Positions 10,989 through 47,562 of a DNA stretch of 64,000 nt are shown here, piece by piece. Numbering within the stretch: the first letter of the stretch is position 1; the number at the start of each line of letters is the position of its first letter. Below the pieces are notes generated by a model, which was not told where the DNA came from, searched no databases, and worked only from the letters and a program-made list of their open reading frames with translations. Made by a program: the position numbers and the translations under genes. This DNA is from Nemertoderma westbladi (lineage: Eukaryota; Animalia; Xenacoelomorpha), in contig JAUCBJ010003070.1 in NCBI GenBank assembly GCA_032718475.1, positions 1-64,000 of the forward strand, read 5' to 3'.

Positions 10989-13449
10989 AGCATTATATAG
11001 ACAATTAAAAACTGCACCTACTGGTGTATTTAGTCCACCTCTGGCCGACGTGCTGTTTTGCTATGAAGGAAAGTATACTTTTGCCACCTGTTTTCTAGAA
11101 CGGATACCTCCGTTTTGGATCCCTCCCACTAGAATGATTTGACAATTCACCAATAAATGTGATACTTTTCTGGCGGAGAAATTATTCATCTTCAAAATTA
11201 GGTATGTGTACGAAAAGTGCAATGGTCTGCACTTTTCGTACACAATGCATTTTTCACAAAATGGAGTATTGTGGGAGGCTTGAATCACTTTGGATGGATG
11301 GGTTGAACCACTTTCCTGTTGGTTGTTATGGGTATTTATCTACAGGTACGGATAGTATTTAGTAGGAATAATGGACTATGCTTGTTTCATTGTTACTTTC
11401 TTGTCAACCTGTGGTCCCAGGTAGTAGATAACGGTAGAGGCAGAGTCGGAAGATGTTCATTGTGAGTCCAAACCAGAGCCACATGGTATAGTCACTGGAG
11501 GGGGAGAATAAGAAACGCACCGATTACCTATAATTGAACTAAATAAACAATAATTAACTCAATGTGCTGGATTTGGTATTATTGTAAAATAAAAAAACGA
11601 CAGTTTTTAATGAAGATAGAACAGTCACTGGCAGACAAACACTGAAAAAACACAAACAAACAGACAGAAAGACTAATTTTCATTAACATATATTCATTTG
11701 ATAACATTGCTTCTATGGGTGGTTCAACCCTCCTAACCCCCCTGATTCAAGCCTCCTATATGGGGTAGGAGGCGTGAACAAGAAAACTCGGCTCTGGAAA
11801 ACGCTTATTTCTCATATAATACATGATTTTAGAACCTTTAATATGTATTCCAATAGATGCGGAATAGATTGTTTTAGGTTTGTGCAATTTCAGCTTGAAG
11901 CTACGATGTGGAACAGAATAAATTATTATTTTTTGTAAAAATGGGCCGCAAAGCCCATCTCGGTGAAGTAATACAAAATTATCACTTCAGAAGTGGCACG
12001 TTATTCTAACTAAAAAAAATTAATTAAACTAAAATTAATAGAAAAGGTTACTGTTTTATTTTTAGAGCAATCAGTTATTGCATCGAATTTGCATCGATTT
12101 TCCCCTGGGGCGGGATGAACTTTTATTGCTTTGAAAGTCTCTGACTTTATCATAAACTTACCTCGATTCTCCCTGCAACACTTCTATAAGAGAATTATGG
12201 CGGTGGCTAATTTTAGAGTTGCTCTCAACTGCATTGCGAATATTCATTGTTTCAAGGACAGACCAATTCTGTTTATCTTTATGTGTGCGAGATAACATGG
12301 TTTAGGTTTATACAATAATGATGACCTTACAAGGTCTAATAGGTTGCTTATTCTTGTTCTTTACAAAATTTAAAATAATAAATATTATGATTGTTATTAT
12401 GGTTGATTATTACTAAGTTCAAAACGGTTCGATTTTTCTTGTTAGCTAAGACAAATCTAAAACCCGATTTGGAATCAGGAATGTCGAATTATGTATAATA
12501 AACATACCGAAAACATGCGAATATTATCGAAGAAACTTTTTTCTCATTACAGTGAAATAAGATATAAGTTGTGCCTGATAAGTAATTTGAGAGTTTATTG
12601 GAGATTATGAATAAACTTGTGCCAGAAAAACCTAAAACCAGATTTGGAATCAGCGTGGTTGAATTACCCCCATTGTACTAAAGCTCCTTTCAATGTTGTA
12701 AATTGGATTGTACGATTCGAGCTCATCGCTCTTATTTGTTTAATCGCGATTATCTAAGAATGGTGTTTTTTACGTTTTACCCTTTGTCTCAGCAACTAGA
12801 AGCAGTATGGACTTGAATTATTATAGTAAATATAGAATAATAAATTATAGAAATTCCTGGTGAAATTTACAACTGAACTATATGGTTGACATAAAAAATA
12901 CTAAACCTTTTACATACAGTAGTCGGGCCTACAGAAGAAACATATTATTCACAAAATTATGGAATATTTCAATATGAACTATATAGGACAATTTTTATTA
13001 ATATTATAGTCGCAGTTAGTTAGTTTGCGGTTTAATAATTTAAGATTTAATACATAGAATGCAATTTAAAATACCAATGCAACTTTACTTAGGTTATACA
13101 AACAGTAAAACAGCAGAAAGATGGAAATGTTGTTTATCGACTGACCATAATATCGGTATTATAATCAAAATCACCTTTCTGTTGAAATTTTTGATTACAA
13201 AATTATATTAAACATTAATTTGAATGAATGTAGAGAAAACAAATTGCCTTATCATTTTCAATTTTTATATTCTGTATTATCGTTGCTATAACAACCGGGG
13301 CAGGTGTTGTATAAATAATTGATTTAATATTTAGCAACAGATTAGTTAGGAATTGTCCTGTAATCTCATCGGATTGAGAAATCGATGTGACACGAATTAA
13401 ATTGCTCACAGCCATCACAGGACCGAATCATGCTGCGATAATACATTAT

Positions 13450-14677
13450 TGTAAAAGCTTCTGTGGGATGTAACTGGCCCTTCGCCCCGCAACCCAGTTT
13501 TTCCCCCATACGCTAAAATACTCTGAAACCTACTGTAAAGGTTTTTCTGAGATATGACTGATTTGTTTTCTTTGCTAACCAGTTCCCCCCTCCAAGGCGT
13601 TGGAATCCTCCAGGAGGGATCTGAGCTGTTCGATTGGCCAGCCGGCTTGGGAAGGTTGCCCCAGTTACCCATAGCCCTGCGTTGAGTTAGTTCTGATTTC
13701 GACCAATCCCGAGCTACTGAACTGAAATTATCCTATCTCACTGCCGATTACATGTGTTGAACGGGATTCTTGGAAAATAAGAGAGCTAAAGTCACGGGAC
13801 TTTTGTTATGATTTTGAGACTTTATTATCAGAGTTTTAAGACCGTGTTGAGATAGCGAAATGTTTTCTGCCTTTTTTGTAAGAACATTAGTAGGCAAAAT
13901 TATAGAAAGCATAGCTATTATCGACTCATTTAATTCATTGATCTCATCACTTGCAATCTAATTGTATCTTAACCTACCGTCATACTGCTTTTACTGTTTG
14001 TAATTTTGTATCAGTATAATTGGATGTTATTAGTTGAAGAATATCAATAATCAACCCACATTTTCCCAATATCCTTGATACACTACAGGTTAGAGAGAAG
14101 GGTTATGTACAACAATTGCGACTTTATTATTGTGTTTGTAGTGAATCTAATGTTGTTTGACAGACACTACCTGAGTCCAGTGCATATCTCTTTATACCTG
14201 ATCAAAGTCAGTAACTGTCGGCATATCAGTGAGCAGTGTTGTGCGTTACCGGTAGCGTGCGTGATTGTAAAGTGATTGGATCTGATAATAAAGCATTCCT
14301 AAAGAATGCGCCCTATGCTTGAAATTTAAGCCATATCGTTGTGTGTAGTATCAGTCATAACTCTGTTTACATAGGTAGAGCGCCACGTCCTAAAAGGAAC
14401 TGCTAATATTTCCCGAAAGTGAATAATATTTGTCAGAGATTATATATTAGTAATCAATCGAATAATACAGTAGGCTTGACCGCAAATAAATTTAAGCCCA
14501 CGAATCCAGTCTCCCGGTGTTATAAACGGGTCATTTGGACGCGCATGGACTGGCTTCGGCTAATGTTTTTGGTTTGTTTTTGTATTAAATCTTGTCATCT
14601 TATAAAAGGCAGTTTATCAATAAAGACATATAAATTTCGGCAGGTTAAACTGCTGAAGGTCTATAAAAGCGCGTACA
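13450..14677 (+). repeat. 5' LTR of BEL-1
   Basis: 1228-bp direct repeat of 26967-28194 with TG...CA ends; no differences seen by eye. Confidence 0.95.
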
Positions 14678-16710
14678 ATAATAGCTATCGATCTTATTTG
14701 CGGTAAGCAATAAGATTGAAAATACCGGCACTCCAGTAGGTCAGTAGGCCCAACTGTCATAACCGGTACTACTACCGTAGGTCCGTAGGCCCAACTGTCA
14801 TAACCGGTACTGCTGTGCAAGTACATTAGTATTATTCGATTTTGATTATTGTATACCGGTAGGTCTTGATACTAAATCGGGGACGCCTGGTTTTTATTGG
14901 GATTTTACTTAGGTTTATTTCTGTCAGTTTTATTTCCTAGTAAGTTAATATTGAGCTGAAGACGTGTAAGTCTGCTCAGATTGTTCAGATCATTGTAGGC
15001 TGGACTGTTGTCTGACGGTTGTTAGGCTTGAAGATTACAGCGTGTGTAGAGAGTCTGATAGGTGCCAGTTAGTAAGTTGGGGCAACTCGTAAGTTGTAAG
15101 GTCAACCCCTATAAAGAATAAGCCGCGCTACCTTATTAGCACGCATACTCACTAACAAGTTTCGGAATCTGCATATACTGTGGTTATTTAGGCTTGATAG
15201 TAGTCCGTCAGCGTTTATCCTGTATTGTTTGTATAGTCTGTTCAGATACCGTAATATTATTCAGATATTTTGTGGGCTGGATTGTTGCCTAGCTGTTGTT
15301 GGGTCTGAAGGAATTGCTACGTGTGTAGAGTAAGTCTGATAAAGTGCCGTTAGTAAGTTGGGGCAGCCATCGCTGTAAGGACAATCCCCTCTTAAAGAAT
15401 AAGTCGTACTACCGTATTAGCACGCATACTAACTAACAGTTTCAGAATCTGCACATACAGTAGTTTGTTTAGGCTTAGTGGTAGTCTGTCAGCATTTTAG
15501 TTTGTATTTTATTTGAGTATTCTGTACGGGTAGCGTAATATTTATTATTCAGAGTTTATGCAATTACTCGCAACATTCATGTCCCCAAGTTTATTCCTAC
15601 AGTAATTGTGTTTGTTATACATACCGTTATAGTTAAATTAACCCCAGTACTACACGGGCTGCTTGGCGTAGGTAAAGACTGGTGACTTAGTGCCCCGGTC
15701 ACTCCAGCAGATGCTGTGGTTCTTTTAACTGTTCAAGTATATTTAACTACTGGTTATCTGTTTTACAAGTACCTGTACCTAATTTAGGGTTTAGTGTACA
15801 GTGCTGTCCGAGAGTAATTAGTGTAGGCATTATTGTGTTGTAAAGTAGTTAATAGGCACGCTCGTTCTGGTAGACGGCGGTAATTAACTTCTAGGTAGGA
15901 ACACTCCGTAGATACATAACGTTGTACCTATAGCGCTACGGCTGTAGGTCGTCAGGCGGTGGTATTTTCCTATCTAGACAACGCAATATTTACTTCTGCT
16001 TATTATTTTCAAATACCGTAGTATCCTGTCCGTTGAAATAACCAGGAGATCTAACCCTTTGTTAGACTGGTTAGTAGTTTCCCTGTAAAATTGCCCTAAA
16101 AATCTGTACGTACCGTTTTTGTGTGTTTATTAGAGATTGTAATCTCACCAATAGTAAGTAACTAGTAAATAAGTAACGTAGGCCAGTAGAATTATTCTGT
16201 TTAGTGTCCCATAAGTAGCACTTCACTGAAAGCGCACAGCTTCTGTGTAGTGGTATTTTACCGGAAATAGTAACACCTATTTCAATCTTGTAACAAATCC
16301 CTTATCAGGGTATATATATATTATAAATCAACTCCAAAGATTTATAAATCAGTAGGCCTGTCATACAACAAGTAGGTCTCAATATCAGTTGGACTACTGC
16401 TTACATAACGGTAACAGAGTAAACTCAAGTAACTAAGTAACCTTATAATTTCAGAAATTCAATTATCCTAAATAATTGATATACCGGTATCTATAATAGG
16501 CTTAATATATATTTGTATATATTTGTACTGAAATTATATACCGGTACTCTGTGACAAACCTAGTCTGCAATAATTATATATACTGTGGGTGTATACCGGT
16601 ATCCTAATATATCGTAATTAATTACCGGTACTAGGCCAACAGTCCTACTGAATTACTGGACTTGCTTTAACTGTAACTATAGCAGTAGGCATTCAACTGT
16701 ATAACTAAAC

Positions 16711-19700
16711 ATGGCTGACATAAAGAAAACTCTGTCAGATAGTCTTTTAGAAACAACAGCCTGTTTCTCAGATCAAAGTGTAGAGAATCCTAGACCGAGA
16801 TCTGAGACCCCTCCTACTGTAAGAAGGGCAACCCCTGCAGTAGTTGTGTCAGAACCTAGGTTGGTAGAAGCGATTTCGCAATTTGCTAAGTTAGTGAAGC
16901 GCCGTAGGTCTGCCATAGGCACTCGGGCCCAAGTCAAACGGAACCCAGAGGAAGCTGTCCTATCGCAGCAACATCCTGATCACGAACCTAGTCCCCAGCG
17001 ACCCGATAGCTCCAGTAGTTCGGAGACTGTTGAGCGGACACCCGAACGCGGAGCGAAAATGGTGGATACGGCTTGTGATGAGCGGCCAACCTTTGAAGAA
17101 TCAACCGACGCCCCTTCTTCTCAAGTAGAAAGCGAAGTGGAAAGCGAAGTGGAAAGCGAAGTGGAAAGCGAAGTGGAAAGCGAATTAACACCAGAAGGAC
17201 CACAAAAGAGAGATGCAATTGATACCTATTTGTCAGATTATCAGCGATTCATAGGAGACAAGGAGTTGAGAAGAAGACTGCATGGATTTACACCTAATAG
17301 TGCAGGGGCTAAGCGTGTATTGGACGAACTCGATGCTGAGATGTTAGCTAAAGATCAAGCTAAATTTGATGAGGAAAGACGCATCGCTAGAGCCCAGGAA
17401 ACACAAGTCCAGAAAAAACAAATAGAAGATCGAAAGGCAGCAGCAGCGGCAGAGGCAGAGGCAGCAAGAAAGTTAGCAGCGGCAGAGGCAGAGGCAGCAA
17501 GCAAGCTAGCAGCGGCAGAGGCAGCAAGCAAGCTAGCAGCGGCAGAGGCAGAGGCAGAAAGAAAATTGACAGAAGCGGAAAAGAGAGCTTCTGACGAGAT
17601 CGCCCAACTAGAGTTGGCAAATCTGCAAGAGACACATGATTACATCAATAAACGCGACACAGAAAGTCGAATGAAGATACTGAGTCGATCTACTTCGAAA
17701 CGCCAAGGTTTTACATCCTCAGAAGAAGGAGACACTACCGACACTGAAGGTGGAAGAAATAGATCCCGTCTCAGTAGGCGTAAAAGAATGTCTCCACGTC
17801 AGAAATTGCCTGATTTGCCTCCAGCTGTTAAGAGACAACTAGCTAGCATAGCAGTAGATAGTACAGAACCCACAGACCAAACTATTACCATTACCAGACT
17901 CCCTACTATAGTAGATGAGCCGGAAATAATTAGGCCTGTTCTAGAAAACACCCCTTCGGTGAGAGAGACCCCTGTACTCCCCAAATCTACTACCAAACTC
18001 CCTTTACACAGTACTATTAAATTAACGGCACCTGGTGGAGCAGCCCAAGTCCCGGTTCTGGAGACTGAGAGAGACATACAAGATCTGTCTCCCGTCGCCC
18101 CGATACGGCCCGCTACAACGTTGGCGACTCCCGCTTCGGCGGTCGAGTGGGTTGAGAAGGGACGGCGGGAGATGAGTCTCTTGCTCGGTCAAATGCGAGA
18201 ACAGCGAGACTGTTCCTCGCAACAGATCCGGGACTTAGAAGGGACTGTCTACCAACTCAAGGGAACCGTAAGGGATAGTAGGATAGAGCTGCAAGAAGTG
18301 CAGCAAAATATCGCTCTCGAGCGCGACAAATTAGTCAATATACAAAGGGGAATACCAACACCCCCTGTAACCCTGTGTCAACCTGCTAGGTCGGAAGTGT
18401 ATCATGCGCGAGGTGTGTCGCCTACACGCATATATACTGCTAGCAAAGTAGAAACACCCCCTATAACCCTGAGTCAACCTGTTAGGTCTGAAGTACATCA
18501 TGCGCAAGGTGTGTCGCCTATACGCATATATACTGCTAGCGAAGTAGAAACTCCTATAGTAAACCCTATTACGGGAGACTACAAACCTGTGAATAATGAT
18601 ATTCCCTATAGACCTGATAATGATCTGAAAAATTTATATACCGATAATTCGATATTAAATAACACGATGGCCCAAGAAAGCTTTACGCGTCAGATGGCTA
18701 GAACAGAAGCCCGCCAAGCGGTCAAAGTGGGAGAAATTGTCAAATTCAACGGTGATGAGATGAAATGGTTACCTTTTAAAGAATATTATGAAGATAGCAT
18801 ACAGAACTCTGTACTATCTAGCGGAGAGAAACTGAGATTCCTCATCAAATGTTTGGAAGGACCTCCCAAGTTAATGGCGTTGAAGTTTATTGGACATCCA
18901 AATGGATTAAGACAAGTCTGGGATACATTAAACACCAGGTATGGTAATAAAGATAATATCGCTAAGTATTTGTATGCAAAACTGGTAGCCCCTCGAAAGT
19001 TCCTTAGTAACGAGATTATAGAGTTTTCCGATGAGATTCAAGAAATCTGCCGACAATTGGATTGGTTAGGTAAGTCCCATGAATATCAGAGCTCCATGGT
19101 CATCGGAGCCATAGTCTCTACTTTGCCAAAGGGTGGAGTATGTACACGTTGGGACAAGAAGGTGTTGCATATGATGGAGCAACAACGACGGAGCCCCACC
19201 ATGGTGGATCTCATGTCATTCCTAGACCGTGAGGTCAAACTACAACTAATAAAGCAATCCAGGGAAAAAACATCGGAAAATCAGGTAAGTGAAAAACCCG
19301 TTTCTAGGAAAAGAATAATACCCGTATGTTATACTGACGACGGCGAAAGCCAGACCTCCCATGAAGAAGACAGCGGGAAAGACACAGCAAGATCCTACGA
19401 TGACCACAAAACCCCGAGAGACGTAAGTAAATACCAGCCTCGAACCAATGATAGGAGAGACAAGCTTACCAAGACCCCTCCTCAGTCTCCCAAAGGAATT
19501 CAGGTAAGCAAGCCCGAAGAACGAGCGAAAGTGCACAGCATTGCCCAAGTTAAAGTGAGTAACATCAAACCAAAATGTGCGCTGTGCGACGGGCCCCACC
19601 GTTTGAGTGCGTGTGCGGAATTCCAAAAGAAATCCCTGGCAGATAGACGTGGAGTCCTGTGGGATAAGCGGTTGTGTTATAACTGTCTCAGACGCGGACA

Positions 19701-21009
19701 CCAGCGGCGAACCTGTTACTCTGACGCAAGGTGTGCTAAGTGCGGCGCGAAACATCATAGCTTATTGCACACAGAATTCGAACGAAACCACCCGAGTCAG
19801 GTAAGTGAGCCCAAATCACATGTCCAATTCAGTGATGTGAACGACACTGACCAAAGTTCTGAGTGGGAAGGATTCTATACTGACGAATTCTCTGATGCCA
19901 ACGAATCCTGTTATCTAATAAACACCGCAGTGTATCGAGCACTTACGTACGAAAAGGATAACGACACGGAGTTTCCATCAACCTCCTTGGACAAGCAACC
20001 ATCTCGGAAAACTCCAACATCCAACATAGGAATACGAGAATTTCCGGTAGTCCAGGTAAGAGTTCACGGTCCCAACAAAAGTTACATAGTGAACGCCCTC
20101 CTTGACTCAGGTAGCACCGGAACATTCATCGACAAGGAGTTAGCCGAGGATATTTTTGCTGGACAACCCAAATTCCGAACTAAGTTAAATATGTCCGGAA
20201 TTATGCAGGTTTGGAAATCTACCTTAATGGCAGATTATTATATCGGCGCATTGTCCACTCCACAGGATAAATTAGGGGAACAAAGTATAGAGTCAGTAAA
20301 AATGGTGGCAATAAAGAACTTCGCTACTACTCAAGTAGAACCTTATGACTGGGACGAGGACGAGAACATCCAACATTTGGGAATACCTCGATTCCAAACT
20401 GATTATCCTGGAGTACAAATCCTTATCGGCCAAAACGCGCATGAGGCGCTCGAGACGTTAGAGAAACGGCCTGCTCAACCGCAGCCATTACAACCTTATG
20501 CGGTAAGAACTCGAGTAGGTTGGTACTTCACTGGCCCTTCCCGCAGAACCCTTGAAGAAAGACTGCCACAAGACCGGATACTTCAAGTAAAAGCTTGGGA
20601 AGAGGAGAGCAGTGAGGTGGACGAAGCCACTGAGGGAACAACATACTCCTCAGATAGCGACGATATCAACTCCAATGTAGATCAATGGAGACATCGACCC
20701 GAGACGATTAATCTAGCCGACATCGCTTCCAGAGGAGTAACTCCTCAAGAACGGATAGATACTCCCGGCTGGTTGGGTGGACCCGACTCCCTAAGTAAAG
20801 AAGAAGAAGAATGGCCTCCTCGTCTTGCCGCGGCGGAGATTAGACAGGCCAAGGGAGCGGAGGAAATATCACGACGGCCTAATCGCCCAGCTGGTCGTTT
20901 AGGTTTACCGGGAAGAGACCGAAAACTGTCCGGAAACCATGGAAGGCAAGATACTCTTCCTACGACCACTTCCCTAATTCGACAAATATCTAGGGACTCC
21001 ATCACGTAA
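16711..21009 (+). CDS. gag-pro: BEL/Pao Gag-aspartic protease polyprotein, RT/RNase H/integrase deleted (1432 aa)
   Basis: DUF1759-like KFNGDEMKWLPF...EKLRFLIKCLEG; triple Cys-His knuckle CALCDGPHRLSAC / CYNCLRRGHQRRTC / CAKCGAKHHSLLH; protease ALLDSGS...TRVGWYFTG; short post-RNase H remnant WRHRPETINLADIASRG...WLGGP; no YxDD motif. Confidence 0.9.
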   Translation: MADIKKTLSDSLLETTACFSDQSVENPRPRSETPPTVRRATPAVVVSEPRLVEAISQFAKLVKRRRSAIGTRAQVKRNPEEAVLSQQHPDHEPSPQRPDSSSSSETVERTPERGAKMVDTACDERPTFEESTDAPSSQVESEVESEVESEVESEVESELTPEGPQKRDAIDTYLSDYQRFIGDKELRRRLHGFTPNSAGAKRVLDELDAEMLAKDQAKFDEERRIARAQETQVQKKQIEDRKAAAAAEAEAARKLAAAEAEAASKLAAAEAASKLAAAEAEAERKLTEAEKRASDEIAQLELANLQETHDYINKRDTESRMKILSRSTSKRQGFTSSEEGDTTDTEGGRNRSRLSRRKRMSPRQKLPDLPPAVKRQLASIAVDSTEPTDQTITITRLPTIVDEPEIIRPVLENTPSVRETPVLPKSTTKLPLHSTIKLTAPGGAAQVPVLETERDIQDLSPVAPIRPATTLATPASAVEWVEKGRREMSLLLGQMREQRDCSSQQIRDLEGTVYQLKGTVRDSRIELQEVQQNIALERDKLVNIQRGIPTPPVTLCQPARSEVYHARGVSPTRIYTASKVETPPITLSQPVRSEVHHAQGVSPIRIYTASEVETPIVNPITGDYKPVNNDIPYRPDNDLKNLYTDNSILNNTMAQESFTRQMARTEARQAVKVGEIVKFNGDEMKWLPFKEYYEDSIQNSVLSSGEKLRFLIKCLEGPPKLMALKFIGHPNGLRQVWDTLNTRYGNKDNIAKYLYAKLVAPRKFLSNEIIEFSDEIQEICRQLDWLGKSHEYQSSMVIGAIVSTLPKGGVCTRWDKKVLHMMEQQRRSPTMVDLMSFLDREVKLQLIKQSREKTSENQVSEKPVSRKRIIPVCYTDDGESQTSHEEDSGKDTARSYDDHKTPRDVSKYQPRTNDRRDKLTKTPPQSPKGIQVSKPEERAKVHSIAQVKVSNIKPKCALCDGPHRLSACAEFQKKSLADRRGVLWDKRLCYNCLRRGHQRRTCYSDARCAKCGAKHHSLLHTEFERNHPSQVSEPKSHVQFSDVNDTDQSSEWEGFYTDEFSDANESCYLINTAVYRALTYEKDNDTEFPSTSLDKQPSRKTPTSNIGIREFPVVQVRVHGPNKSYIVNALLDSGSTGTFIDKELAEDIFAGQPKFRTKLNMSGIMQVWKSTLMADYYIGALSTPQDKLGEQSIESVKMVAIKNFATTQVEPYDWDEDENIQHLGIPRFQTDYPGVQILIGQNAHEALETLEKRPAQPQPLQPYAVRTRVGWYFTGPSRRTLEERLPQDRILQVKAWEEESSEVDEATEGTTYSSDSDDINSNVDQWRHRPETINLADIASRGVTPQERIDTPGWLGGPDSLSKEEEEWPPRLAAAEIRQAKGAEEISRRPNRPAGRLGLPGRDRKLSGNHGRQDTLPTTTSLIRQISRDSIT

Positions 21010-22634
21010 TAATATATGGAGTGGGTGTGTGACTATATTATTTTATATTTGTTTTTATTTTATATTTATGTATGTATTACTATGTATTTTATTATAATCG
21101 TTTTATTTAATTTTATTTAGTAGAGTGTTATTTTAGATTATTTAGTAGATTAGTGCAATATATTAGTGTTTATTACGTAATTACATAATATACTTAGTGC
21201 GACGGCGAGAAATAATTATTTTCTCTTTCCTTACTGTCCGTATTATATTATAAATGCGAGACTACAGTAAGATGAAATGTCCGTACTTATTAAAGTACAA
21301 TAAAGCCACTACTATATTTTCAGTATTATTGGTAGGCAGAGTATTAGGAATGCAAAGTTCAGATCCTCGTGTCTCGGCTAAACCAAGCTCTGGGTAGACC
21401 TTGGAAACGACTTGCCTCTTCACACTGACATTGCCTTGTGCGATATTGCTCTTCTACCTATATTAAATAATACATATAGTAGCGTGATGTCCCTTTAACA
21501 GTAGCGTAAAACGCAAATAAATCTGTTAAACTTTTGACCATCTGTAATTCTAGTCGATTAAGATATCGTGGCACCCACCGATATACTTGAAAGACAAATT
21601 CTAGAATCAGTGGTTAACGTCCCCAGACAAGTTCTGGAATAAATCGGTGCCCATCTTAAATATTAATTTAATATTTATTAAAATCTGTCAAATTCAGATC
21701 CTTTAAAATTTCTAGTTAATTAAGATATCGTAGCACTTACCGGTATTCTTAAAAGACCATTTTATAGAATTAAGGATCTTATGTCCCCAGATATGTTCTG
21801 GAATCAAAATTGTGTCAATCTTACCATCAAATAATAAAATTCACGGGAATAAATTTAAAATTCATATTTTATGAATTTAATAAATTGTCATTTTGCACAA
21901 TTTCTAATATTCCCAAAATTCCACTAATTAATAGATCACGGGAGCGGAGATTAATCCTATTGAGTGTATTAGAGTGCAAGAATCTCCAACATATAGTCAA
22001 TAGCCGACAAAATTCATAAAATCATGTGTAAAGAGGATATGGACAAACTAAAGACTTACTATCAAACAACATCCCAGATCTGTATGCATGAGAACTACCC
22101 TAATTCTACCGCTAGCTTTACATAATGTCACCATAGCAACACCCACGCTAGAATTAAAAAACGAGTTAAAAGAACAATAGAAAACTTGTACCGTTACTCA
22201 GCATAGTGATTGTATAGCACACGGTTGGTATCCAAGGATACACAATAACAACAACGTGACATTCTGGAAGGCATTGACTAACGGACAAATGGCCTGTAGG
22301 ATGGTAGTTGGTAGCTGTTGTGTGGAATTTATGCGTTTGTAGGTGAATGTTGCTGCTAAGGTGTGTTTACAGTAGCTAGTCGCAATTGTAAGATAACCCA
22401 ACTCTCCCATAGCAAGAACCTCAAGTGATAACAAGCCTTTGGGACGGACAGTGGAGGGACTTGTGCCGGTTATCGTTGTCGTGCTGTTGCCACAACGTTG
22501 GCGTAAACACCGCGACAGCGGTACATCGGCGCTGAGAATCCCACTGTCCGGGGGGTCGCGATTAGTAGGCAGCGACGCCCGCTGACCTAAAACATATATA
22601 ACTCGTTACATATTGGTGGATTTCGATAGCAGAT

Positions 22635-25600
22635 ATGACGGAATTGATAGAAGATGATCTTGGTATCAGGGAGCGATATAATGTACCTTTGCAGGCGTTT
22701 GTGGATAGCTTGATAGGTGGTGAACCCGGTCCCACCACTACAGAGGAAGATGGTCGTTACATCGAACCGCCGATGTCCCAAGAGCAACTCACGCGTGAAT
22801 TGGACTATAGAAAATTCACCGCTCGCTATACGCACCGTAATGGTACGTATATGGACTTTCTAACCACCGGCCATCCGATCGACCTACATGATACGGACGA
22901 TGTAGACACCGAAAGAGAAATGGTTTTGTTTAAATATCACGCTCAACGGAGTCGTAACGATAAACCAAGAACAGACCACGAGAACTCTATTCGTAACCGG
23001 CTCGACCGAGAAAACGTTGAGGAACCCGATAAGCGTATCAACTTCAACGACTACCTGGAATTTTTGAGAGAAACTTATCTCAATATTGCCAGTCAACAAA
23101 ACCTAGAGACTCGATATCCTCAAGGTATACATCATGATCCCATGGTAGAACTCCAACGACTATACTTCACCATGATGTATCTCACGGCCGATCGTCCACT
23201 ACCCGTGGTTCCCGATAGCTTTGCACAAATGGAGGAGTATTGCAAAACGGGAGAACGATCACCCGCATTCCCTCTACAGGACTTACGTCTATGGTATTAT
23301 TGTGACGAATGCCCTAGACCCAACCAACAAACGGAAAGACATAAACATCCGCGGAGACGTTGCGCTAAACATAGTTTTACGCGTTGTACGTACGGGAGTT
23401 TCGAGCGAAACCTATTCGATGTGTCGCCCACGGTCGCCCGCCTCAAACGATCACTCAATAAACCCATGATCAGAGTTCCGGAGTACTCGGTTAGGCCTCC
23501 TCATTCACCCGTTAGACCTCAAACTCTTGATCCTAATAGTATCACCGATCCTCCCGAACTATATTCTCTGTTCAAAGACTTGGTGTTACCTGAACAGTTA
23601 ATAGGTGGTACTCCGGTAGTGGGCTCTTTAGACATTAGACCATCCTACCTAGCCGGATTAGGACGCGGGCATCTTATATCGCCATTTAATCCCTACAACC
23701 GCCCCGGATTAACCCCGATTCAACCTGCCACGGAAGTCGAAGAGAGCGTTATTAGAAATGCTTTAGACGCTATTCGACAGAAAATCGGGAAGGGAACACA
23801 GGATTACCTCGAAAAACGTAAATTACAGCAACAAGTTCAAGCGGTGAAGGATTTAGCCTTACCACAGTTCGATCGAGAGATACAAAACCTCGAGGACGAC
23901 ATAGAGCTGGGACGCACGTACTCTCTCCAGGAGTTTCTAGACGAGCGTATGAGACAACGAGCGGAAGAGAACCAACTCGAAAAGAAACATACGGAAATGG
24001 ACGAGAGGGAAGAAGCCGCTTTAGCTCAACCCGAAACCCAAATCCTTATGACGGACTTATACTCTAAAACTATCCGTCATCCCTCGATGATTCCCAACTT
24101 CGGAGATAAACTCTTCGCGAAAGTACAACCCCAACCGGTCGATATTAGTACAGGATCACACCAGCTAATCGCCGACGCCCCCATGTTACAGCGCCCGCCG
24201 ATCGAAGCTGCTCGCGTTGACGGTATACTCGTAGAACCTCCGGACAATCGAGCGGATCTTGTCCGTCGTATGGTACACGATGTCAACATACGCGCTCCCC
24301 CTTTAACGAACTCGTTTTATGGGATTAAAGATCACCCTTATTACGTTAATCTGACTCAATATTATATGATAAAACCGGAAGATCCTATGCATAGCTTGAA
24401 GTTTCTACCGTTAATAAATCCTCTGGACATTGTCGAACTCGAACAATTACAGAAACATTTGGATCAGTTAGTAAAGGTAAACTCTTTTAGAAAACCATAT
24501 AACATTTCTAGAATTGAGAATGATACGATACCTCCTTATAACCTCGATGGATTCATTAAAACTCGATTAGTCCATTGGAATCTCGACGTATTATTCGAGG
24601 AGGAGAGAATAAAAAGACACGGAAATATGGAGACGTGTAACACTCAATCCTTGAAGTATAGTGATCTCCCTGACGCTAACCAATGTGCTACCTTATGGCA
24701 CCCGGTAGGGATGACCCTCGAGAACGCTACAAAAGAGTGGAATGAGACCCTTAATATCATCGAGATGTATGGAGTAGTTACCTACGATAATGAAGGCAGC
24801 GTTCCAGTCGGAGAATTAGGAACCACGCGCATGATCCACATACGCGGATTAGCCGGTTCTACTCACGTGTTTACTCGAGCGTGTTCCGATGTGATTGATT
24901 ATTCTTTTGAAACTCTCACGGAAACACAAAAGAATCTTCGGCATGGTCAATTCGTACTCGCGCAGCGTTACGTCATTGATACCGAACGTAAACCGGCCAT
25001 GGGTATCGATGGATCGATGCTACCCCAACCCGTGCTCGAGATGTTGTTCAATGAAAAGATCCTTAAAATCGGTTCCGCCGTTTATGGAGATCTACAAAAT
25101 GATTTTCGAAATATGGAGGATACACCATATCCATTTGTAGACACGCAGTTAATTGCACCTTGGGCAGAAGGCCGAGGTTTCTTCCGTACCATGTACGCTA
25201 ATACGTCTAACGACATTACTAAAGTTCAACGAACTTCCATCGGACATATTGCCTTTCAGGAATACGGATGGAATTTCAAGGTTGGAAATTCCCTTAATTA
25301 TCAACAAGTATATGGAGACCATTATTCCCGATTATATTTTGACGGACCGTTGACCGCACCTGGCGCCGTGTATAGCTTCATGAGTGTTCCACTCCGTCCC
25401 TCTTTAGCTATCTACACGATCTTGGAAAATACCGCACTTTCCGGTTGGCTAGCCGACGTGTGCAGTCGTACTATACGCGCCCATCCGTTAATACTTGGAA
25501 CCAAACTCGCTAAGCTAGATGAACATAACAAATTCATACGCTTTGAATGTTTCCGGCGATTTCTAACCCCGTTCCACAACGTGGATAGCCAATTTAAAGA

Positions 25601-26888
25601 TCGCGCGTTGACCAAGCTCAGCCTGAGAAGCTCAGCTGCTGAGAAGTTGGATAGTGCCGGATTTGCCCTATTTAAGGATATTTGCATCGAGAATTTACAT
25701 TCTTCTGTTATACAAAGACCTCGACTCACCACAGGTTATTCTGTCGTTGAGATTCAAACAGTAGGTCCACCAGAAGAGTCAACTACGCTCGCCGCAGCTA
25801 CACACTGGGAAGACGAGCCTATGTGTATGGAATCTGAGGAGATTCAACCTACTACGCCCCGGAACAGCGACAACGATTATATTATCGAATGGTATCAAGG
25901 TCCACAGTGTCTCACTGCGTACGATTATCGCCATGCCAACTATGTTGATCGTCAGCGTTGTCGGTTATGCGCATCTAGAGACCATATTACGCCTATGGAT
26001 ACGAATATCCTATGTTCCTATTTCCACGAACAGCCTTCGATGGAAATTTACTGCGCTTATTGTCGACTCAATGATTCGCACATTTTTGCTGTCTGCCCCC
26101 AGTTCATGACGCAATGCCACCATTGTCAGCTGAAAGGACACGCCAGCTTTGATTGTCCCTTCAATAAAGATTTGGAGAGTGTAGACGAAATGATTGTACT
26201 CCGTTACATTCGAGCTTGGGAAGCGAACGCTGATTTACATTGTAACTCACGTCATCGCTACTACCCTGGACGCGCTTACGAAGGAGTCTATGCGTTCCAT
26301 CCGTATTTATTCGCTTCTGTCGAACAGAAAGCGTGCATCCCGAGTTACGAGCTATTAAAGCGCGTCGGAGAATGTATTTCGACTAAGTTTGTGCGCAAAT
26401 TCCTTAGGAGAGTTAACCCCAATGATATTCATTCCTATTATTTAATCAACTTTATCCGACGCGATCCGGACTATGGAGAATTATTCGTTAACTCGCATCC
26501 TGAGTTACAAGAAGTATATCGAAGGCCTTACGAATATCGAGCCCGCGAACGCGAGTTGGAGAGAACCGTTAAACCAAGACAGTTTCTGACAGCCTACGGT
26601 CCACCCACGGCTTCCGTTCAGACCACTCGCAGAGGACCTGTGAGAGCAGCCGTCCTAAAACGAGCCCTAAAGGCCGTTAGACCCCAGTCCCCCGATGTTG
26701 ATGACAACCTACCCGGAACCTCAACTGGCGGATATACCGACAACAATCCTGCACCCTCTGATGCAATTATATTGCACCCTTCACCCAGGAGTTATAGCCC
26801 TCCTTGTAAAGTGGCTCGCCCCAAAGAGAAAAGGACTCTGGCTAGCTTTAAAAAACTGCGTAAACGCCGTCCGCGCAAGAAAGACTAA
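22635..26888 (+). CDS. Cargo ORF2 of BEL-1 (1417 aa): predicted DEDDy-like 3'-5' exonuclease region, Cys/His zinc fingers, basic C-terminal NLS-like tail
   Basis: Uninterrupted 4.25-kb ORF. VVTYDNEG (ExoI-like), ILKIGSAVYGDL (ExoII-like), FVDTQ, YTILE (ExoIII-like). CAYC...H...C and CHHCQLKGHASFDC. Ends KKLRKRRPRKKD. The ORF is certain; the domain call is by eye. Confidence 0.75.
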   Translation: MTELIEDDLGIRERYNVPLQAFVDSLIGGEPGPTTTEEDGRYIEPPMSQEQLTRELDYRKFTARYTHRNGTYMDFLTTGHPIDLHDTDDVDTEREMVLFKYHAQRSRNDKPRTDHENSIRNRLDRENVEEPDKRINFNDYLEFLRETYLNIASQQNLETRYPQGIHHDPMVELQRLYFTMMYLTADRPLPVVPDSFAQMEEYCKTGERSPAFPLQDLRLWYYCDECPRPNQQTERHKHPRRRCAKHSFTRCTYGSFERNLFDVSPTVARLKRSLNKPMIRVPEYSVRPPHSPVRPQTLDPNSITDPPELYSLFKDLVLPEQLIGGTPVVGSLDIRPSYLAGLGRGHLISPFNPYNRPGLTPIQPATEVEESVIRNALDAIRQKIGKGTQDYLEKRKLQQQVQAVKDLALPQFDREIQNLEDDIELGRTYSLQEFLDERMRQRAEENQLEKKHTEMDEREEAALAQPETQILMTDLYSKTIRHPSMIPNFGDKLFAKVQPQPVDISTGSHQLIADAPMLQRPPIEAARVDGILVEPPDNRADLVRRMVHDVNIRAPPLTNSFYGIKDHPYYVNLTQYYMIKPEDPMHSLKFLPLINPLDIVELEQLQKHLDQLVKVNSFRKPYNISRIENDTIPPYNLDGFIKTRLVHWNLDVLFEEERIKRHGNMETCNTQSLKYSDLPDANQCATLWHPVGMTLENATKEWNETLNIIEMYGVVTYDNEGSVPVGELGTTRMIHIRGLAGSTHVFTRACSDVIDYSFETLTETQKNLRHGQFVLAQRYVIDTERKPAMGIDGSMLPQPVLEMLFNEKILKIGSAVYGDLQNDFRNMEDTPYPFVDTQLIAPWAEGRGFFRTMYANTSNDITKVQRTSIGHIAFQEYGWNFKVGNSLNYQQVYGDHYSRLYFDGPLTAPGAVYSFMSVPLRPSLAIYTILENTALSGWLADVCSRTIRAHPLILGTKLAKLDEHNKFIRFECFRRFLTPFHNVDSQFKDRALTKLSLRSSAAEKLDSAGFALFKDICIENLHSSVIQRPRLTTGYSVVEIQTVGPPEESTTLAAATHWEDEPMCMESEEIQPTTPRNSDNDYIIEWYQGPQCLTAYDYRHANYVDRQRCRLCASRDHITPMDTNILCSYFHEQPSMEIYCAYCRLNDSHIFAVCPQFMTQCHHCQLKGHASFDCPFNKDLESVDEMIVLRYIRAWEANADLHCNSRHRYYPGRAYEGVYAFHPYLFASVEQKACIPSYELLKRVGECISTKFVRKFLRRVNPNDIHSYYLINFIRRDPDYGELFVNSHPELQEVYRRPYEYRARERELERTVKPRQFLTAYGPPTASVQTTRRGPVRAAVLKRALKAVRPQSPDVDDNLPGTSTGGYTDNNPAPSDAIILHPSPRSYSPPCKVARPKEKRTLASFKKLRKRRPRKKD

Positions 26889-26966
26889 CGGTTTAGAGTA
26901 TTTATGTATATTAGAAACTGCGATTTTGTATATTTTATAGACTTCAATCTCATTTTCTGGGAGCGG

Positions 26967-28194
26967 TGTAAAAGCTTCTGTGGGATGTAACTGGCCCTTC
27001 GCCCCGCAACCCAGTTTTTCCCCCATACGCTAAAATACTCTGAAACCTACTGTAAAGGTTTTTCTGAGATATGACTGATTTGTTTTCTTTGCTAACCAGT
27101 TCCCCCCTCCAAGGCGTTGGAATCCTCCAGGAGGGATCTGAGCTGTTCGATTGGCCAGCCGGCTTGGGAAGGTTGCCCCAGTTACCCATAGCCCTGCGTT
27201 GAGTTAGTTCTGATTTCGACCAATCCCGAGCTACTGAACTGAAATTATCCTATCTCACTGCCGATTACATGTGTTGAACGGGATTCTTGGAAAATAAGAG
27301 AGCTAAAGTCACGGGACTTTTGTTATGATTTTGAGACTTTATTATCAGAGTTTTAAGACCGTGTTGAGATAGCGAAATGTTTTCTGCCTTTTTTGTAAGA
27401 ACATTAGTAGGCAAAATTATAGAAAGCATAGCTATTATCGACTCATTTAATTCATTGATCTCATCACTTGCAATCTAATTGTATCTTAACCTACCGTCAT
27501 ACTGCTTTTACTGTTTGTAATTTTGTATCAGTATAATTGGATGTTATTAGTTGAAGAATATCAATAATCAACCCACATTTTCCCAATATCCTTGATACAC
27601 TACAGGTTAGAGAGAAGGGTTATGTACAACAATTGCGACTTTATTATTGTGTTTGTAGTGAATCTAATGTTGTTTGACAGACACTACCTGAGTCCAGTGC
27701 ATATCTCTTTATACCTGATCAAAGTCAGTAACTGTCGGCATATCAGTGAGCAGTGTTGTGCGTTACCGGTAGCGTGCGTGATTGTAAAGTGATTGGATCT
27801 GATAATAAAGCATTCCTAAAGAATGCGCCCTATGCTTGAAATTTAAGCCATATCGTTGTGTGTAGTATCAGTCATAACTCTGTTTACATAGGTAGAGCGC
27901 CACGTCCTAAAAGGAACTGCTAATATTTCCCGAAAGTGAATAATATTTGTCAGAGATTATATATTAGTAATCAATCGAATAATACAGTAGGCTTGACCGC
28001 AAATAAATTTAAGCCCACGAATCCAGTCTCCCGGTGTTATAAACGGGTCATTTGGACGCGCATGGACTGGCTTCGGCTAATGTTTTTGGTTTGTTTTTGT
28101 ATTAAATCTTGTCATCTTATAAAAGGCAGTTTATCAATAAAGACATATAAATTTCGGCAGGTTAAACTGCTGAAGGTCTATAAAAGCGCGTACA
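26967..28194 (+). repeat. 3' LTR of BEL-1
   Basis: Direct repeat of 13450-14677, followed by the TSD ATTAT. Confidence 0.95.
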
Positions 28195-28575
28195 ATTATA
28201 ATTATTTGAAATTCTACAGCGCAGTTTAAGATTGCTAGTGCGGCTAGGAGATGCGAAACGAGTCTGTGACAAAGGCCAACAATATGACAACGTTTAGAGG
28301 CCTACAGTACTACCGTTTCCAAAATCCACGGAATATAACAGATATGGGGGGAAACTGGGCGGGAATAGGGGGGCAATAAAAATTCATCCCTCTCCAGGGG
28401 AATAACAGCATATATAGAATATAGGTATATACATATATATATAGAATAACGCAAATAACAGATGATTACTCTCAAAAATAAAACTGTAACCTGTTCTTTT
28501 GTGTTTAGTTTATTGCTTTGGTTAAAATATCGTGCCACTGTAACCTGCACCTTTCCCTAAATTCAGAATTTAACA

Positions 28576-29880: not shown

Positions 29881-30049
29881 AATGTATTTGTTAAGCAGGC
29901 ATAAATTCGTAGGACTTGCATTTAAAAACCGACGTATCCTTTTTGCTTTACCATAGAATTTAATCAATATTAATCAAACATTTATCATCTGACCAAAACC
30001 CATTTAAAAATTATTCAGTGTTTAGTATTATAGAAACATTTGATATATA

Positions 30050-32062: not shown

Positions 32063-32198
32063 TATTTCAAAATATTCCCCAATAATATGCACCTTAGATA
32101 TTTATATTAAGTAATAGTAATTAGTATTATATAGAGTACAGAAATACAACTGAAATACCAAACATTCCAGGTAGAATTCGCTGAAACTAGTTGTTTAT

Positions 32199-40526: not shown

Positions 40527-41276
40527 AATTGTTTTTGTTTGTACCAATTACATTATGATCTGTAATGCTAATAATATCATACACATTCTTACAAGGGGCT
40601 GTTAAATATCACTTGATCAGTATCTATAAGTTTTAAAGATTGTTTTGTTATTTTTTATGGATCAAATTGTATTTCAATATATTAAATAAACCTAATAAAA
40701 TTAGGCAACAATAATTATTTCAGTTCTAGAATTATTCATTATAAGATATCATTAAACTATAACAGCTATAAGATCTCACCACAATGACTATATTTTATTT
40801 TTATATATATTTTTTTGTTGCTGCAGTTATAAATCCTGCCTTTAAAATTACTTATTTTACCAATTTACCCAAAATACTGTATATTTATTGATAAAGGACC
40901 AGTTACGGTATCATATTGATTATTTCTTACAAATTATTCTTTAGTAAAGGAAAGTAAACCATTTATATATGTATTAGATACTCTTGGCACTATAGTTAGT
41001 AAAGTATAGTAGTATGGTAAAGTAAACCATTTATATATGTATTAGATACTCTTGGCACTATAGTTTGCTTATTTAGAGGTGATAGGTATTCACTAATCTA
41101 CTCGATTCAATTTTGTTCACGAGTTGAGATGTTTTTTATATATTGGCTACGTACGCCCTGTATAATTCTAGTTTAATATTGATAACTGAACTATTTACAT
41201 ATTAGATTAATTTTATGTACGAATTTGAACTTATGCCTTGACTTTAACGCCCTGGTAGCTAAATTAATGGAAGCGG

Positions 41277-41759
41277 TGTTGCTGCAGTTATAAATCCTGC
41301 CTTTAAAATTAATTATTTTACCAATTTACCCAAAATACTGTATATTTATTATTGATAAAGGACCAGTTACGGTATCATATTGATTATTTCTTACAAATGA
41401 TTCTTTAGTAAAGGTTCTTACGCCATCTAATGCCATTATCTGCCTATCCAATTTGTATTTGGAGAGTGTAAGCTAGGGATCCACCTTATTGGCTATGCTC
41501 CTTACTGATAGGCTAGTATATAAGTGCGGTTGTTCTATGATTAATTTACTCTTTTTGTTATTGTTTGACAGAAGAAGTTGCACTGCCCATGCAGAGGCAC
41601 TGATCCCCGGTCAAGTTTAATTGACTGGTGGTTATTACAGGCCTAAGGTCTAAACTTAAAGAGTTAATAATTGAATTATAATTATTATTTTTGGATATTC
41701 TACTGGTAAATTCAATTTGTCTTTATAATTTGTATAATATATCGCCGATATTACGTAAT
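41277..41759 (+). repeat. LTR of BEL-2 (3' end missing)
   Basis: Near-identical to 53521-54003. Confidence 0.85.
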
Positions 41760-42082
41760 TGTAAGCAGATTCAATTCCGCCGCATTACCCTCATAAAATG
41801 GGATAGTGGCATTTTCAGCAATATGTTGGAGATACGAGATTAGCAGTAACTAATCTCGTATCACAACCAACATCGGGGACAGTACAAACCCCAAAGCCAC
41901 ACACAAAGGGAGGTTAGAGGTCAAACCACCTCGGAAGGGGAGACAGCTAGCAGGGGCTAGGAACAGGGGGAAACACTCCCAGAGAGTGGGAAGGCGTGAA
42001 GTAGGTTATTAGCCAATAAGGGCGAAGGAGAGCATCCACTAGGTAGGACGCCAAAGTAATGTAGCAGTGAAGTTTCCTGTGC

Positions 42083-43400
42083 TTGTGTGCCGGACACAAT
42101 AGAAGCAAGTGTTATTTACGGGACACCTACAAATGTGTTAAGTGTAATGGAAAACATCACTACCTATTACATCAGAAGGATATAGACCCCCGCGTGGAAA
42201 TAAAGATTAAATTGACCGATTATGCCCCTTATGACATGAGGGGAAGTACCGAACAGGAGTTCTATACGGACGAGTTCTCTATGGATGAGGAAAGTTGCAA
42301 TAATGTAGTGGTCTGTACAGCCATCACGTATGAGCCACCATTACGCCCAGAACAGCCGATTAACAGTGACATATCATTAAAGACCTCTGACCCAAAATCG
42401 CTCGGTGTTAGAGAATTCCCCGTTTTGCAAGTTCGACTACACTGTAACAACCGTAGCGTCATCGTAAACGCCCTGATGGATACAGGAAGTTCTGGATCCT
42501 TCATTGATCAAGACCTTGCAGAGGAGTTATTTAGCAAGGCAGACGGACATCCAATGAAATTAAATCTATCCGACGTAATGCAATCCTGGCAATCAGTTAT
42601 ACAAACTCGTTATTACAAAATTTATTTATCTGACCCCGGTGATATAAATGAAATATGTAAATTAAACAACATCAAGGTGGTTGCGATTAAGAACTTTACT
42701 GATAGTCAAACACCTGTGTATAACTGGGACAACGATGACTTGTGAAACGTAATAACATCCCGCGATATAAACTCGATCGACCCGGAGTTCGATTATTAAT
42801 CGGCCAGAATGCGCCAGAGGCCCTGGAAATTTTACAAAAACTCCCTAGTTCGCCTCTACCTTTAACCATATACGCTGGCAGAACCAGGATTGGTTGGTTC
42901 TGCACTGGCCGATCGATAAATACTTTAAACGAAAGAATGTCTAGTGACAATATATCAACCAATCACATTCATTCAGAAAACATATTGACCAATTATATCC
43001 ATTCTCCTAAACCCGGTTATATTGTGGAAGCGGGGGAATTCGCGGTGGGAGGACCCGATTTTGGGACAAAGTTTTCAAAATTTTGCGGTGAATCCAGTAA
43101 ACCCAGCAACAACAATCAACCGAAATCCCGACTTAATACGGACGAATATGGAGAACCTATTGACGCAGTAACCAATAACTATATAAACAAATCGGACAGC
43201 CCAAACTCAGACCACTTTTGAGTATTCACTCCCGGACTGAAGCTGTCCCAGACACCCCCCAATTATTTCAAAGTCAATCAGACTTACATAACATTAAAGT
43301 AGGTCTATCCCCACTGATAGCCAGCGCCATGAACCATTACAGCTCATGGGATAAATTATGTAGGGCTATAACTATTCTGAAACAACTATTCCACTACAGA
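42083..43400 (+). pseudogene. BEL gag zinc-knuckle/protease remnant, frameshifted
   Basis: CVKCNGKHHYLLH, FYTDEFS, REFPVLQVRLH, NALMDTGS and TRIGWFCTG are all shared with BEL-1 ORF1. Then HYSSWDKLCR (post-RNase H linker) follows with no RT in between. Confidence 0.85.
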
Positions 43401-46231: not shown

Positions 46232-46769
46232 CCACTACAGACATAGTACTAATAATATACCTGTTGTAAGCTTGTCACCCTCTGAAGTTGATAAATCTAA
46301 TTTACAACTGTTACGACTTTCACAGAAACTTGAGAAACCTGAGGAATATCATCAACTCAGTGTCGATTCTTTGACTTCATTGTCGGATAAATTCTCAGGT
46401 ACTATGATCAATGGATTAATTCGCGTTGGAGGTCATCTTACCAACGCTCCTATTTCTAGAGACACTATTTTCCCAATACTAATATTCGATCCCGAAATTC
46501 TAACAAAGCGACACGACATCCACTATGGACTATATCACGCCGGGAGAGAACATATATTAAGTGAGATAGGGACGAGTTACTGTTTTGTTGGCCCTCGTGC
46601 AGCTCTGGGCCAGACATTGCGGAGTTGTATACCTTGCCGAGGAATTTGCCGCACACCAGTGACGCAGTCAGAAGCGCCACCTCCAAAGAAAAGAATTGAC
46701 TACTATCATCCACCGTTCAAGCGAAAGTACACTATTTCAATCGGCCAACCGGCCGCCTTTGTTTATTAG
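46232..46769 (+). pseudogene. BEL integrase zinc-binding (HHCC) remnant without catalytic core
   Basis: GLIRVGG...FPIL...H...HAG...CIPCR; the frame continues from FHYR before the LINE insertion. Confidence 0.75.
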
Positions 46770-47562
46770 AACTGGCAAGGGACATTCTGGTAACTACGGG
46801 TAACAACGCCATAGGCCAAGTAGTTTGACTTACAAACTATAGTAACGTCTTGTAGAAGGTTACGATTGAGTAACGTAATTATTTGTTAGCCATTTAATAT
46901 AGCGTAGGTATTAGTATTAGACTGCACTGCAGGTAGCAACAAAACCTACTTATGTTAATCGTACGTTGCATATTCTGGACGCAGATACAGCAATTTAAAT
47001 TAACGACAAATTATTTGACTTAAAACTTAAATAATTCAAAATAAATGACTAATTACTAACGACAATACTCAATCGTGGAAGCGGATTTGTGTGACGTTAC
47101 CAGCATAGAAATATGCGAAAAATTTTCAAAATTTTGTATTTAATACAAATTAATAATAATAACCAAGATTAAAACATCCCAAATTAAATATCGCTATAAA
47201 ATGATCAAATAACTATTACAGTAGTTACTAGTGTGAAATAAGTGTGAGAGCTGAGCGTTCTAATTTCTAAATTTACCAGCATGTCACCGAACAATTTGGA
47301 TTAATTAAAACCGAAACAACGTGTTTCTCTGAAAACACAAATGGTGACCGTATAACTGTGAATGCAACCTTTTAGTACAGCTTGCATTACAGAAACTCAT
47401 CCTGTTATCTTGGACATTCTGGTAAATATTAAATAAGTCTTTTGAACCGTATTTTTACTTTAAATTAAATTAAATACGCAAACGACTTTTAAATTAAGCT
47501 AAAACGTGTGAATAATAAATATATCGTGTGAGTTCCTGTGAAGCGTATACAATTGTCCAACC

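Follow-up and report, generated by a model that had tools for sequence, protein, structure and literature searches.

The element and its genes

The stretch of DNA analysed here (called the window) is 64,000 nucleotides long and comprises positions 1 to 64,000 of contig JAUCBJ010003070.1 of Nemertoderma westbladi (assembly GCA_032718475.1). It contains a BEL/Pao long terminal repeat (LTR) element of 14.7 kb (13450-28194, hereafter element A), and this work deals with the second gene of that element, open reading frame 2 (ORF2), which is predicted to encode a DEDDy-type 3'-5' exonuclease. As stated in a preliminary description of the sequence, ORF2 is open over its whole length (22635-26888, + strand) and codes for 1417 amino acids. 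Because the two LTRs are identical in 1228 of 1228 bases and ATTAT is present on both sides (Table 1), the insertion is judged to be very recent. A degenerate repeat of ~290 bp lies within the 5' leader (14980-15553), and no TGG-type primer-binding site was found directly 3' of the 5' LTR. ORF2 ends 78 bases before the 3' LTR. Its start codon, located behind 21 upstream ATGs, is preceded by an AG dinucleotide at a distance of 2 nucleotides, which suggests a possible splice acceptor and a spliced ORF2 transcript.

Table 1. Features of element A and of the related element B in the window.
Feature	Position	Strand	Remarks
5' target-site duplication	13445..13449	.	ATTAT; flanks the element
5' LTR	13450..14677	+	1228 bp, TG...CA; 1228/1228 bases as in 3' LTR
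Long leader	14678..16710	+	Between 5' LTR and ORF1
ORF1	16711..21009	+	1432 aa; BEL/Pao Gag and aspartic protease, then RNase H-end remnant
Remnant of BEL/Pao RNase H C-terminal motif	20668..20817	+	QWRH...N.AD.ASRG...W..GP; matched by 12/17 BEL polyproteins at E<=1e-3
Non-coding spacer	21010..22634	+	1.6 kb, 21 ATGs; ORF1 to ORF2
ORF2	22635..26888	+	1417 aa; env position
N-terminal Cys/His cluster	23301..23387	+	Residues 223-251; no family match
Charged, proline-free, coiled-coil-like stretch	23772..24014	+	Residues ~380-460; crude heptad score
Predicted DEDDy 3'-5' exonuclease domain	24702..25484	+	Residues ~690-950; profiles, motifs, language-model features
Three tandem zinc knuckles	25959..26156	+	Residues 1109-1174; zf-CCHC_3 E=0.002; kept in P0021 and P0022
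Family-specific block after knuckles	26157..26300	+	..A....R.R....G.F/Y..HP; aligned in P0021 and P0022, present in element B remnant
Basic C-terminal tail	26850..26882	+	Possible nuclear localisation signal (inferred)
Short purine-rich tract	26959..26966	+	Just 5' of 3' LTR
3' LTR	26967..28194	+	Identical to 5' LTR
3' target-site duplication	28195..28199	.	ATTAT; flanks the element
Element B, decayed related BEL element	41024..54003	+	~737-bp terminal repeats, 97.6% identical
Element B, Gag-protease remnant	42080-42954	+	42-59% identity to ORF1
Element B, integrase zinc-binding remnant	46185-46718	+	Decayed
Element B, ORF2 remnants	52514-52948	+	Collinear; central exonuclease and knuckle part missing

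The first gene identifies the carrier. In ORF1 Pfam detected DUF1759 at residues 679-807 (E=2.7e-13) and, as a weak match, the aspartic protease; Cys/His knuckles are also present in Gag, and all 17 relatives of ORF1 that were found carry BEL/Pao domains (DUF1759 and/or the Pao Peptidase_A17). ORF1 runs collinear with the BEL polyproteins through the whole of the protease, beyond which ~510 residues are skipped in frame up to the motif at the end of RNase H. Thus in the comparison with the polyprotein P0004, ORF1 residues up to 1276 extend to ~816, whereas residues 1320-1368 correspond to 1376-1424. No reverse transcriptase (RT) core was found in ORF1, and no integrase match across the internal region of the element. 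Since RT and most of RNase H have been deleted in frame and the integrase is absent, we regard element A as a non-autonomous BEL/Pao derivative; the BEL-derived, RT-less setting noticed in the preliminary description is borne out by the LTRs, the Pfam matches, the relatives and the polyprotein alignment. ORF1 also contains tandem repeats with 12-, 27/33- and 96-bp units (17123-17564 and 18357-18551), which keep the reading frame.

The predicted exonuclease domain of ORF2

ORF2 had previously been read as a DEDDy/DnaQ-type exonuclease combined with CCHC fingers. Profiles, motifs, the ESM Atlas and distant relatives all support this reading, and we consider it very probable that residues ~690-950 adopt a DEDDy fold of the RNase D/EXD2-like kind. 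The motifs lie within 1 nucleotide of the positions given earlier (TYDNEG at 24780, the others at 25059, 25134 and 25413). The proposed site consists of D718 and E720 in ExoI, D819 in ExoII, D836 in the DTQ sequence, and Y927 and E931 in ExoIII, with an insertion of ~30-40 residues after the third strand of the domain.

When the whole of ORF2 was compared with the 18,950 families of NCBIfam (E<=10), the sole match was RNase D (E=0.039, improving to 0.0026 with a sub-piece). A profile built from 29 bacterial PF01612 domains gave 9.1 bits for ORF2 as against 5.6 bits for the best of 500 shuffled sequences. Around ExoII, ORF2 and E. coli RNase D have 13 of 43 residues in common, both the Asp and the DTQ sequence being in register, and the LP..l..lL.d..ilKvG segment is EXD2-like. 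An ordered scan for all four motifs picked D718, D819, D836 and Y927 with a score of 48.4, which was reached by none of 200 shuffles (best 46.6); it must be noted that the spacing windows were set after the motifs had been seen, thus this significance is optimistic. In scans for single motifs the top places go to D819 and D836, and ExoI (D718/E720) ranks only fifth in the protein. An alternative ExoI at D782 (VIDTE) has a higher score when considered alone, but it was rejected: no more than 37 residues separate it from ExoII, and the relatives do not keep it. Spacings below 45 were excluded from the ordered scan.

NCBIfam, the alignment with E. coli RNase D, the bacterial profile and the motif scan all rest largely on the same ExoII segment. 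The ESM Atlas provides more independent evidence: clusters bearing PF01612 made up 25 of its 30 matches (score 0.92), and in the top three clusters PF01612 occurs on 28-51% of the members. The top clusters carry the label Nucleocytoviricota, which we did not take as evidence for a viral origin. Among the phage protein families of PHROGs there were weak matches only, one of them an exonuclease (E=0.39), and with the family profile the best match to the exonuclease region in the PDB was human EXD2, which was not significant (E=0.68).

The identity of ExoIII needs separate consideration. The preliminary description had remarked that ExoIII contains Glu instead of Asp, and a carboxylate is indeed found in Y927-x3-E931, but a second PL-x6-Y unit, which ends at Y913 (YSFMS), has no acid and competes for the role of ExoIII, had escaped notice. 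The two units are consecutive (window positions 25344-25427, residues ~904-931), and the lead-in to ExoIII was possibly duplicated in tandem long ago. Y927 is preferred by helix propensity (10.9 versus 16.1 for Y913, the references being at 9.5-10.3). Of the two distant relatives of ORF2 described below, P0021 strongly favours Y927, with 23-28 versus -3 to 1 in all but one of four windows and a tie in the remaining one, and P0022 is about neutral or leans slightly toward Y913. Weighing these sequence comparisons, D718, E720, D819, Y927 and E931 most likely form the active site.

Several observations weigh against this interpretation. Pfam gave no match for ORF2 as a whole, nor for the exonuclease sub-pieces at E<=10. 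The RNase D model scored 13-17 bits, far below its curated cut-off of 299, which is set for the whole enzyme, and PF01612 itself did not match. The Atlas matches share 153-158 of 256 features, below the 170 typical of members of the same family. In ExoIII, E931 replaces the usual Asp, alignments A1 and A2 choose the Y913 register for P0022, and the bacterial references hardly discriminate between them (Y927 favoured by 11 to 18 of 29). Structure prediction was of little help: single-sequence searches of the PDB with ORF2 returned nothing relevant, and the AlphaFold models were of low confidence, with a predicted local distance difference test score (pLDDT) of 30.9 from the single sequence and 31.7 from a three-sequence alignment. 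For the latter model Foldseek found no match at E<=0.001 and the best VIA-align Z was 4.1, the model being too poor for these results to count for or against the fold. As judged from sequence, ORF2 is a protein that would work like the PF01612/RNase D group while scoring below the curated family cut-offs.

The same features bear on whether the domain is catalytic. It may be a weak or dead DEDD fold that, as in EXD1 or Maelstrom, binds RNA or acts as a decoy; the Glu in ExoIII, the acid-free Y913 register and the large insertion after the third strand would fit such a protein, and inactive DEDD derivatives are described as acting in PIWI-interacting RNA pathways by Rodriguez et al. (2017, PMC5408684). 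We find this unlikely: all three family members retain the D-x-E of ExoI and the Asp of ExoII, in the favoured register each of them has an acidic residue at ExoIII, P0021 even sharing Y-x3-E-N-T with ORF2, and the helix propensities point to Y927. We lean slightly to the view that ORF2 is an active nuclease.

Other parts of the protein and distant relatives

The other elements of the domain layout proposed earlier were also recovered, among them the N-terminal Cys/His cluster at residues 223-251, the coiled-coil-like stretch at ~380-460 (by a crude heptad score) and a basic tail at residues 1406-1416, which makes nuclear localisation of the protein possible. The tandem C-terminal knuckles are at residues 1109-1127, 1140-1154 and 1161-1174, only the last being a canonical CX2CX4HX4C. 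In the knuckle region the family profile matched HIV-1 nucleocapsid (E=0.004); an ESM Atlas search of this region gave a score of 0.85, which is only a lead. No HRDC domain was detected by Pfam in residues ~923-1122, a search that might overlook an HRDC that has diverged. The view that ORF2 is not an Env protein held as well, there being no segment resembling a transmembrane (TM) helix (best 19-residue hydropathy 1.15); the N-terminus is acidic, and Pfam finds no Env family in ORF2.

An exhaustive HMMER search of 1.84 billion proteins with residues 540-1290 yielded four matches, two of which (P0023 and P0024) were dropped as low-complexity. The other two, P0021 (648 aa, E=1e-7) and P0022 (575 aa, E=2e-5), match ORF2 as well as each other in both the exonuclease and the knuckle regions, and the three proteins have the same domain order: exonuclease, three knuckles, terminal block. 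Two of three MAFFT modes and the alignment with RNase D place a common D-x-E at ExoI (DVE in P0021, DSE in P0022, DTE in RNase D). In domain-only alignments the Asp of ExoII is kept in all three, and ExoIII reads Y-x3-E, E and D in ORF2, P0021 and P0022, respectively, in three of three MAFFT modes. P0021 and P0022, together with P0025-P0028, are unnamed proteins of 575-648 aa from ENA assemblies, encoded on contigs of 3-12 kb, and represent a compact exonuclease-knuckle version.

Other searches brought little. The exact sequences of ORF1 and ORF2 are absent from the protein collection, and word-index searches found no relative of ORF2 among proteins of 30-778 aa or 779-2480 aa. The only locus returned by the metagenome scans (L114) was a bacterial RNase D. 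Scans of viral-contig and plasmid loci gave no match, and two matches in the phage scan (E=5) were judged to be chance.

Copies of the element and selection on ORF2

Four public sequencing runs contain many variants of the element, with 85-100% identity and covering all 30 bins of 16000-27100; contig depth in these runs does not correspond to copy number. In the exonuclease region (24630-25650), 33 of the best-supported 40 of 207 differences are synonymous, as compared with 22-30% expected, giving a ratio of nonsynonymous to synonymous polymorphism (pN/pS) of ~0.06-0.09, a value that is biased toward synonymous changes by the use of best-supported rows and comes from pooled copies, which may include autonomous relatives, so that the selection is not assignable to the RT-less lineage alone. 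These two limits also count against our interpretation. None of the same 40 differences hits any of the five proposed catalytic codons. Among the best 12 of 109 indels all are outside ORF1 and ORF2, and none falls in the exonuclease region. ExoI is preserved at one divergent contig end, where nine codons carry five changes, all silent. By these comparisons of coding sequence ORF2 is under purifying selection among the copies of the family.

Contigs of run X1 skip the middle of ORF2, with joints at 22997-25860 and 22931-25427 (2.5-2.9 kb), which suggests deletion derivatives that lack the nuclease. A comparable loss is seen in element B, a decayed relative of element A in the same window, whose terminal-repeat ends are not clean TG...CA. 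Its ORF2 pieces lack the central part; the strongest has E=9.5e-5 within the window, the others being individually weak. The position of these pieces suggests that ORF2 is older than the split between the element A and B families and sat after pol in their ancestor.

LTR elements are known to capture host mRNAs, and the possibility must be considered that ORF2 was taken up from the host in this way not long ago, as a passenger of no benefit to the element. None of three protein searches, whose scope did not include the host genome, revealed a named cellular gene as its parent. The remnants at the same position in the diverged sister element (ORF1 42-59% identical), the purifying selection among the copies, and a GC content of ORF2 (0.46, third codon positions 0.44) that is close to that of ORF1 (0.47 and 0.42) make a recent passenger very improbable.

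Proposed function

We propose that ORF2 is an intact, conserved accessory gene of a recent, RT-less BEL/Pao element, and that its product, a predicted DEDDy exoribonuclease, acts in trans on host small RNAs or silencing RNAs. Taken as a whole, we put this proposal close to, but short of, an even chance; that counter-silencing is the main role of ORF2 is, by analogy, somewhat less probable still. Gag and protease would be provided by the element in cis, RT and integrase by an autonomous BEL partner. ORF2 protein would be made from a spliced subgenomic RNA and imported into the nucleus. Its knuckles would grip single-stranded RNA while the DEDDy domain degrades it in the 3'-5' direction, as RNase D of Trypanosoma brucei does with its fingers and exonuclease. 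Acting in trans, it could shorten or eliminate small RNAs of the host, or RNAs of the silencing pathway, that are aimed at the element family. Action in trans appears likely because ORF2 is conserved while some copies (run X1, element B) are without its central part. What speaks against the proposal is that the anti-silencing role rests on analogy and that none of the results identifies the substrate.

The same evidence for the fold would equally suit an active exonuclease that serves replication by trimming the primer RNA, the 3' end of the genomic RNA or the cDNA ends. The nucleocapsid-like knuckles (HIV-1 match quoted above) and the lack of a canonical TGG primer-binding site after the 5' LTR agree with such a role, and 3'-end processing was proposed for the rotifer ORF3 proteins by Rodriguez et al. 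(2017, PMC5408684). However, full-pol BEL polyproteins have no ORF2-like region (best E=0.44), no primer for element A was found, and derivatives without the domain exist, though supply in trans could explain them. We consider a replication role rather unlikely, if slightly less so than a pseudo-nuclease, and favour counter-silencing over a replication role, a pseudo-nuclease and a passenger host gene.

It would be a more far-reaching conclusion, which we regard as rather doubtful at present, that ORF2, P0021 and P0022 form an undescribed family of mobile-element exoribonucleases, marked by a DEDDy domain whose ExoIII varies between D and E, by three knuckles and by a terminal block that is kept, and that this BEL lineage has turned into a helper, which dropped RT and integrase and kept Gag, protease and a silencing-disarming nuclease for the whole family.

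Other features of the window

Element B has itself been invaded. A long interspersed nuclear element (LINE)-type element with endonuclease and RT reading frames in three frames (43415-46126, -) is inserted in it, and a GC-rich, probably Gypsy-type LTR element (47563-52114, -) is nested in it, with 290-bp repeats at 99% identity and an 899-aa RT-RNase H reading frame. A third related element is represented by its 3' LTR and purine tract (62783-64000, -), ~75% identical to the LTR of element A, and runs past the end of the window. A 286-aa reading frame (9541-10401, -) has no Pfam match. Perfect 49-bp inverted repeats 1.9 kb apart (30047-32065) likely delimit a non-autonomous DNA transposon. There are also a cluster of interspersed repeats (1-5200), an array of a palindromic 22-bp unit (31437-31869), a triplicated unit of ~680 bp with 15-bp arrays (55418-58177) and a 68-bp satellite (59710-60737).

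Comparison with known systems

It is instructive to compare ORF2 with the DEDDy ORF3s of bdelloid rotifers, which the preliminary description had mentioned and which are indeed published: according to Rodriguez et al. (2017, PMC5408684) they occur in Juno, Vesta and Athena/Terminons, Juno and Vesta having a full pol. As presented there, the rotifer proteins resemble ORF2 in being encoded by a separate reading frame in the env position of a young LTR element, in having no TM segment and in lacking an assigned role. The carriers differ, the rotifer elements being gypsy-like with full pol, in contrast to the BEL/Pao element without RT and integrase described here. The motif is D-E-D-E-y in ORF2 and DEED in rotifer ORF3, a comparison made by description, not by sequence. 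ORF2, with its 1417 aa, also has a coiled-coil-like stretch and three knuckles, whereas the rotifer DEDDy proteins are described without coiled-coil and TM. Purifying selection was seen for ORF2, and the variation test reported for rotifer ORF3s gave a neutral result; it covered only ORFs of the env-like and GDSL types (PMC5408684).

In architecture the closest parallel is the RNase D of T. brucei (TbRND; PDB 7c42/7c45), in which, as described (PMC7797062), CCHC fingers bind RNA and the DEDD exonuclease trims guide RNA. In both proteins the exonuclease is followed by tandem CCHC fingers, which take the place of HRDC in TbRND and apparently also in ORF2; TbRND, in turn, belongs to the mitochondrial enzymes of the cell, is a few hundred residues long and has four fingers and a DEDD site. 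No significant match between TbRND and ORF2 was seen in the PDB searches, therefore the shared architecture may be convergent. The PF01612 enzymes (RNase D, EXD2, WRN exonuclease, Mut-7) have the same order of ExoI, ExoII and ExoIII and similar local sequence; ORF2 differs from them by its ExoI-ExoII spacing (101 versus 57 in RNase D), by the Glu in ExoIII and by having no HRDC detected by Pfam. A transposon-borne DEDDy domain is also known from the Dada transposases of Laccaria and Ectocarpus, but there (PMC3706591) it is located inside the DDE transposase of a DNA transposon and has all four DEDD residues.

As a BEL/Pao element, element A conforms to the group in its Gag and protease homology, domain order and 5-bp duplication, as the group is characterised in the survey by de la Chaux and Wagner (2011, PMC3118150). 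Its LTR of 1228 bp is at the top of the 0.2-1.2-kb range given there, and it departs from the group by its length (14.7 kb versus the usual 4.2-10 kb), the absence of RT and integrase, and an extra reading frame that is not env. The word exonuclease does not occur in the main text of the survey as accessed, and the accessible text of PMC6431247 and PMC7998251 adds no BEL case. In agreement with the earlier suspicion that it may be undescribed, our literature searches, whose scope did not extend to Repbase, subscription journals or supplements, found no DEDDy reading frame in any BEL/Pao element. The features that look new are the carrier, an RT-less BEL/Pao element, a large protein of several domains with a D-E-D-E-y site, and its membership in a protein family of its own.

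It is an open question whether retrotransposons of animals code for suppressors of small-RNA silencing, and the paper that described the rotifer DEDDy ORF3s (PMC5408684) did not put their role to the test. With element A a second LTR superfamily offers a candidate enzyme that is both intact and conserved, for which four acidic residues can be named and natural domain-less derivatives are available for comparison. If the more far-reaching conclusion above is true, ORF2 would be a retrotransposon-encoded enzymatic silencing suppressor. Together with the rotifer elements, element A suggests that DEDDy nucleases were taken into the env position of LTR elements on more than one occasion.

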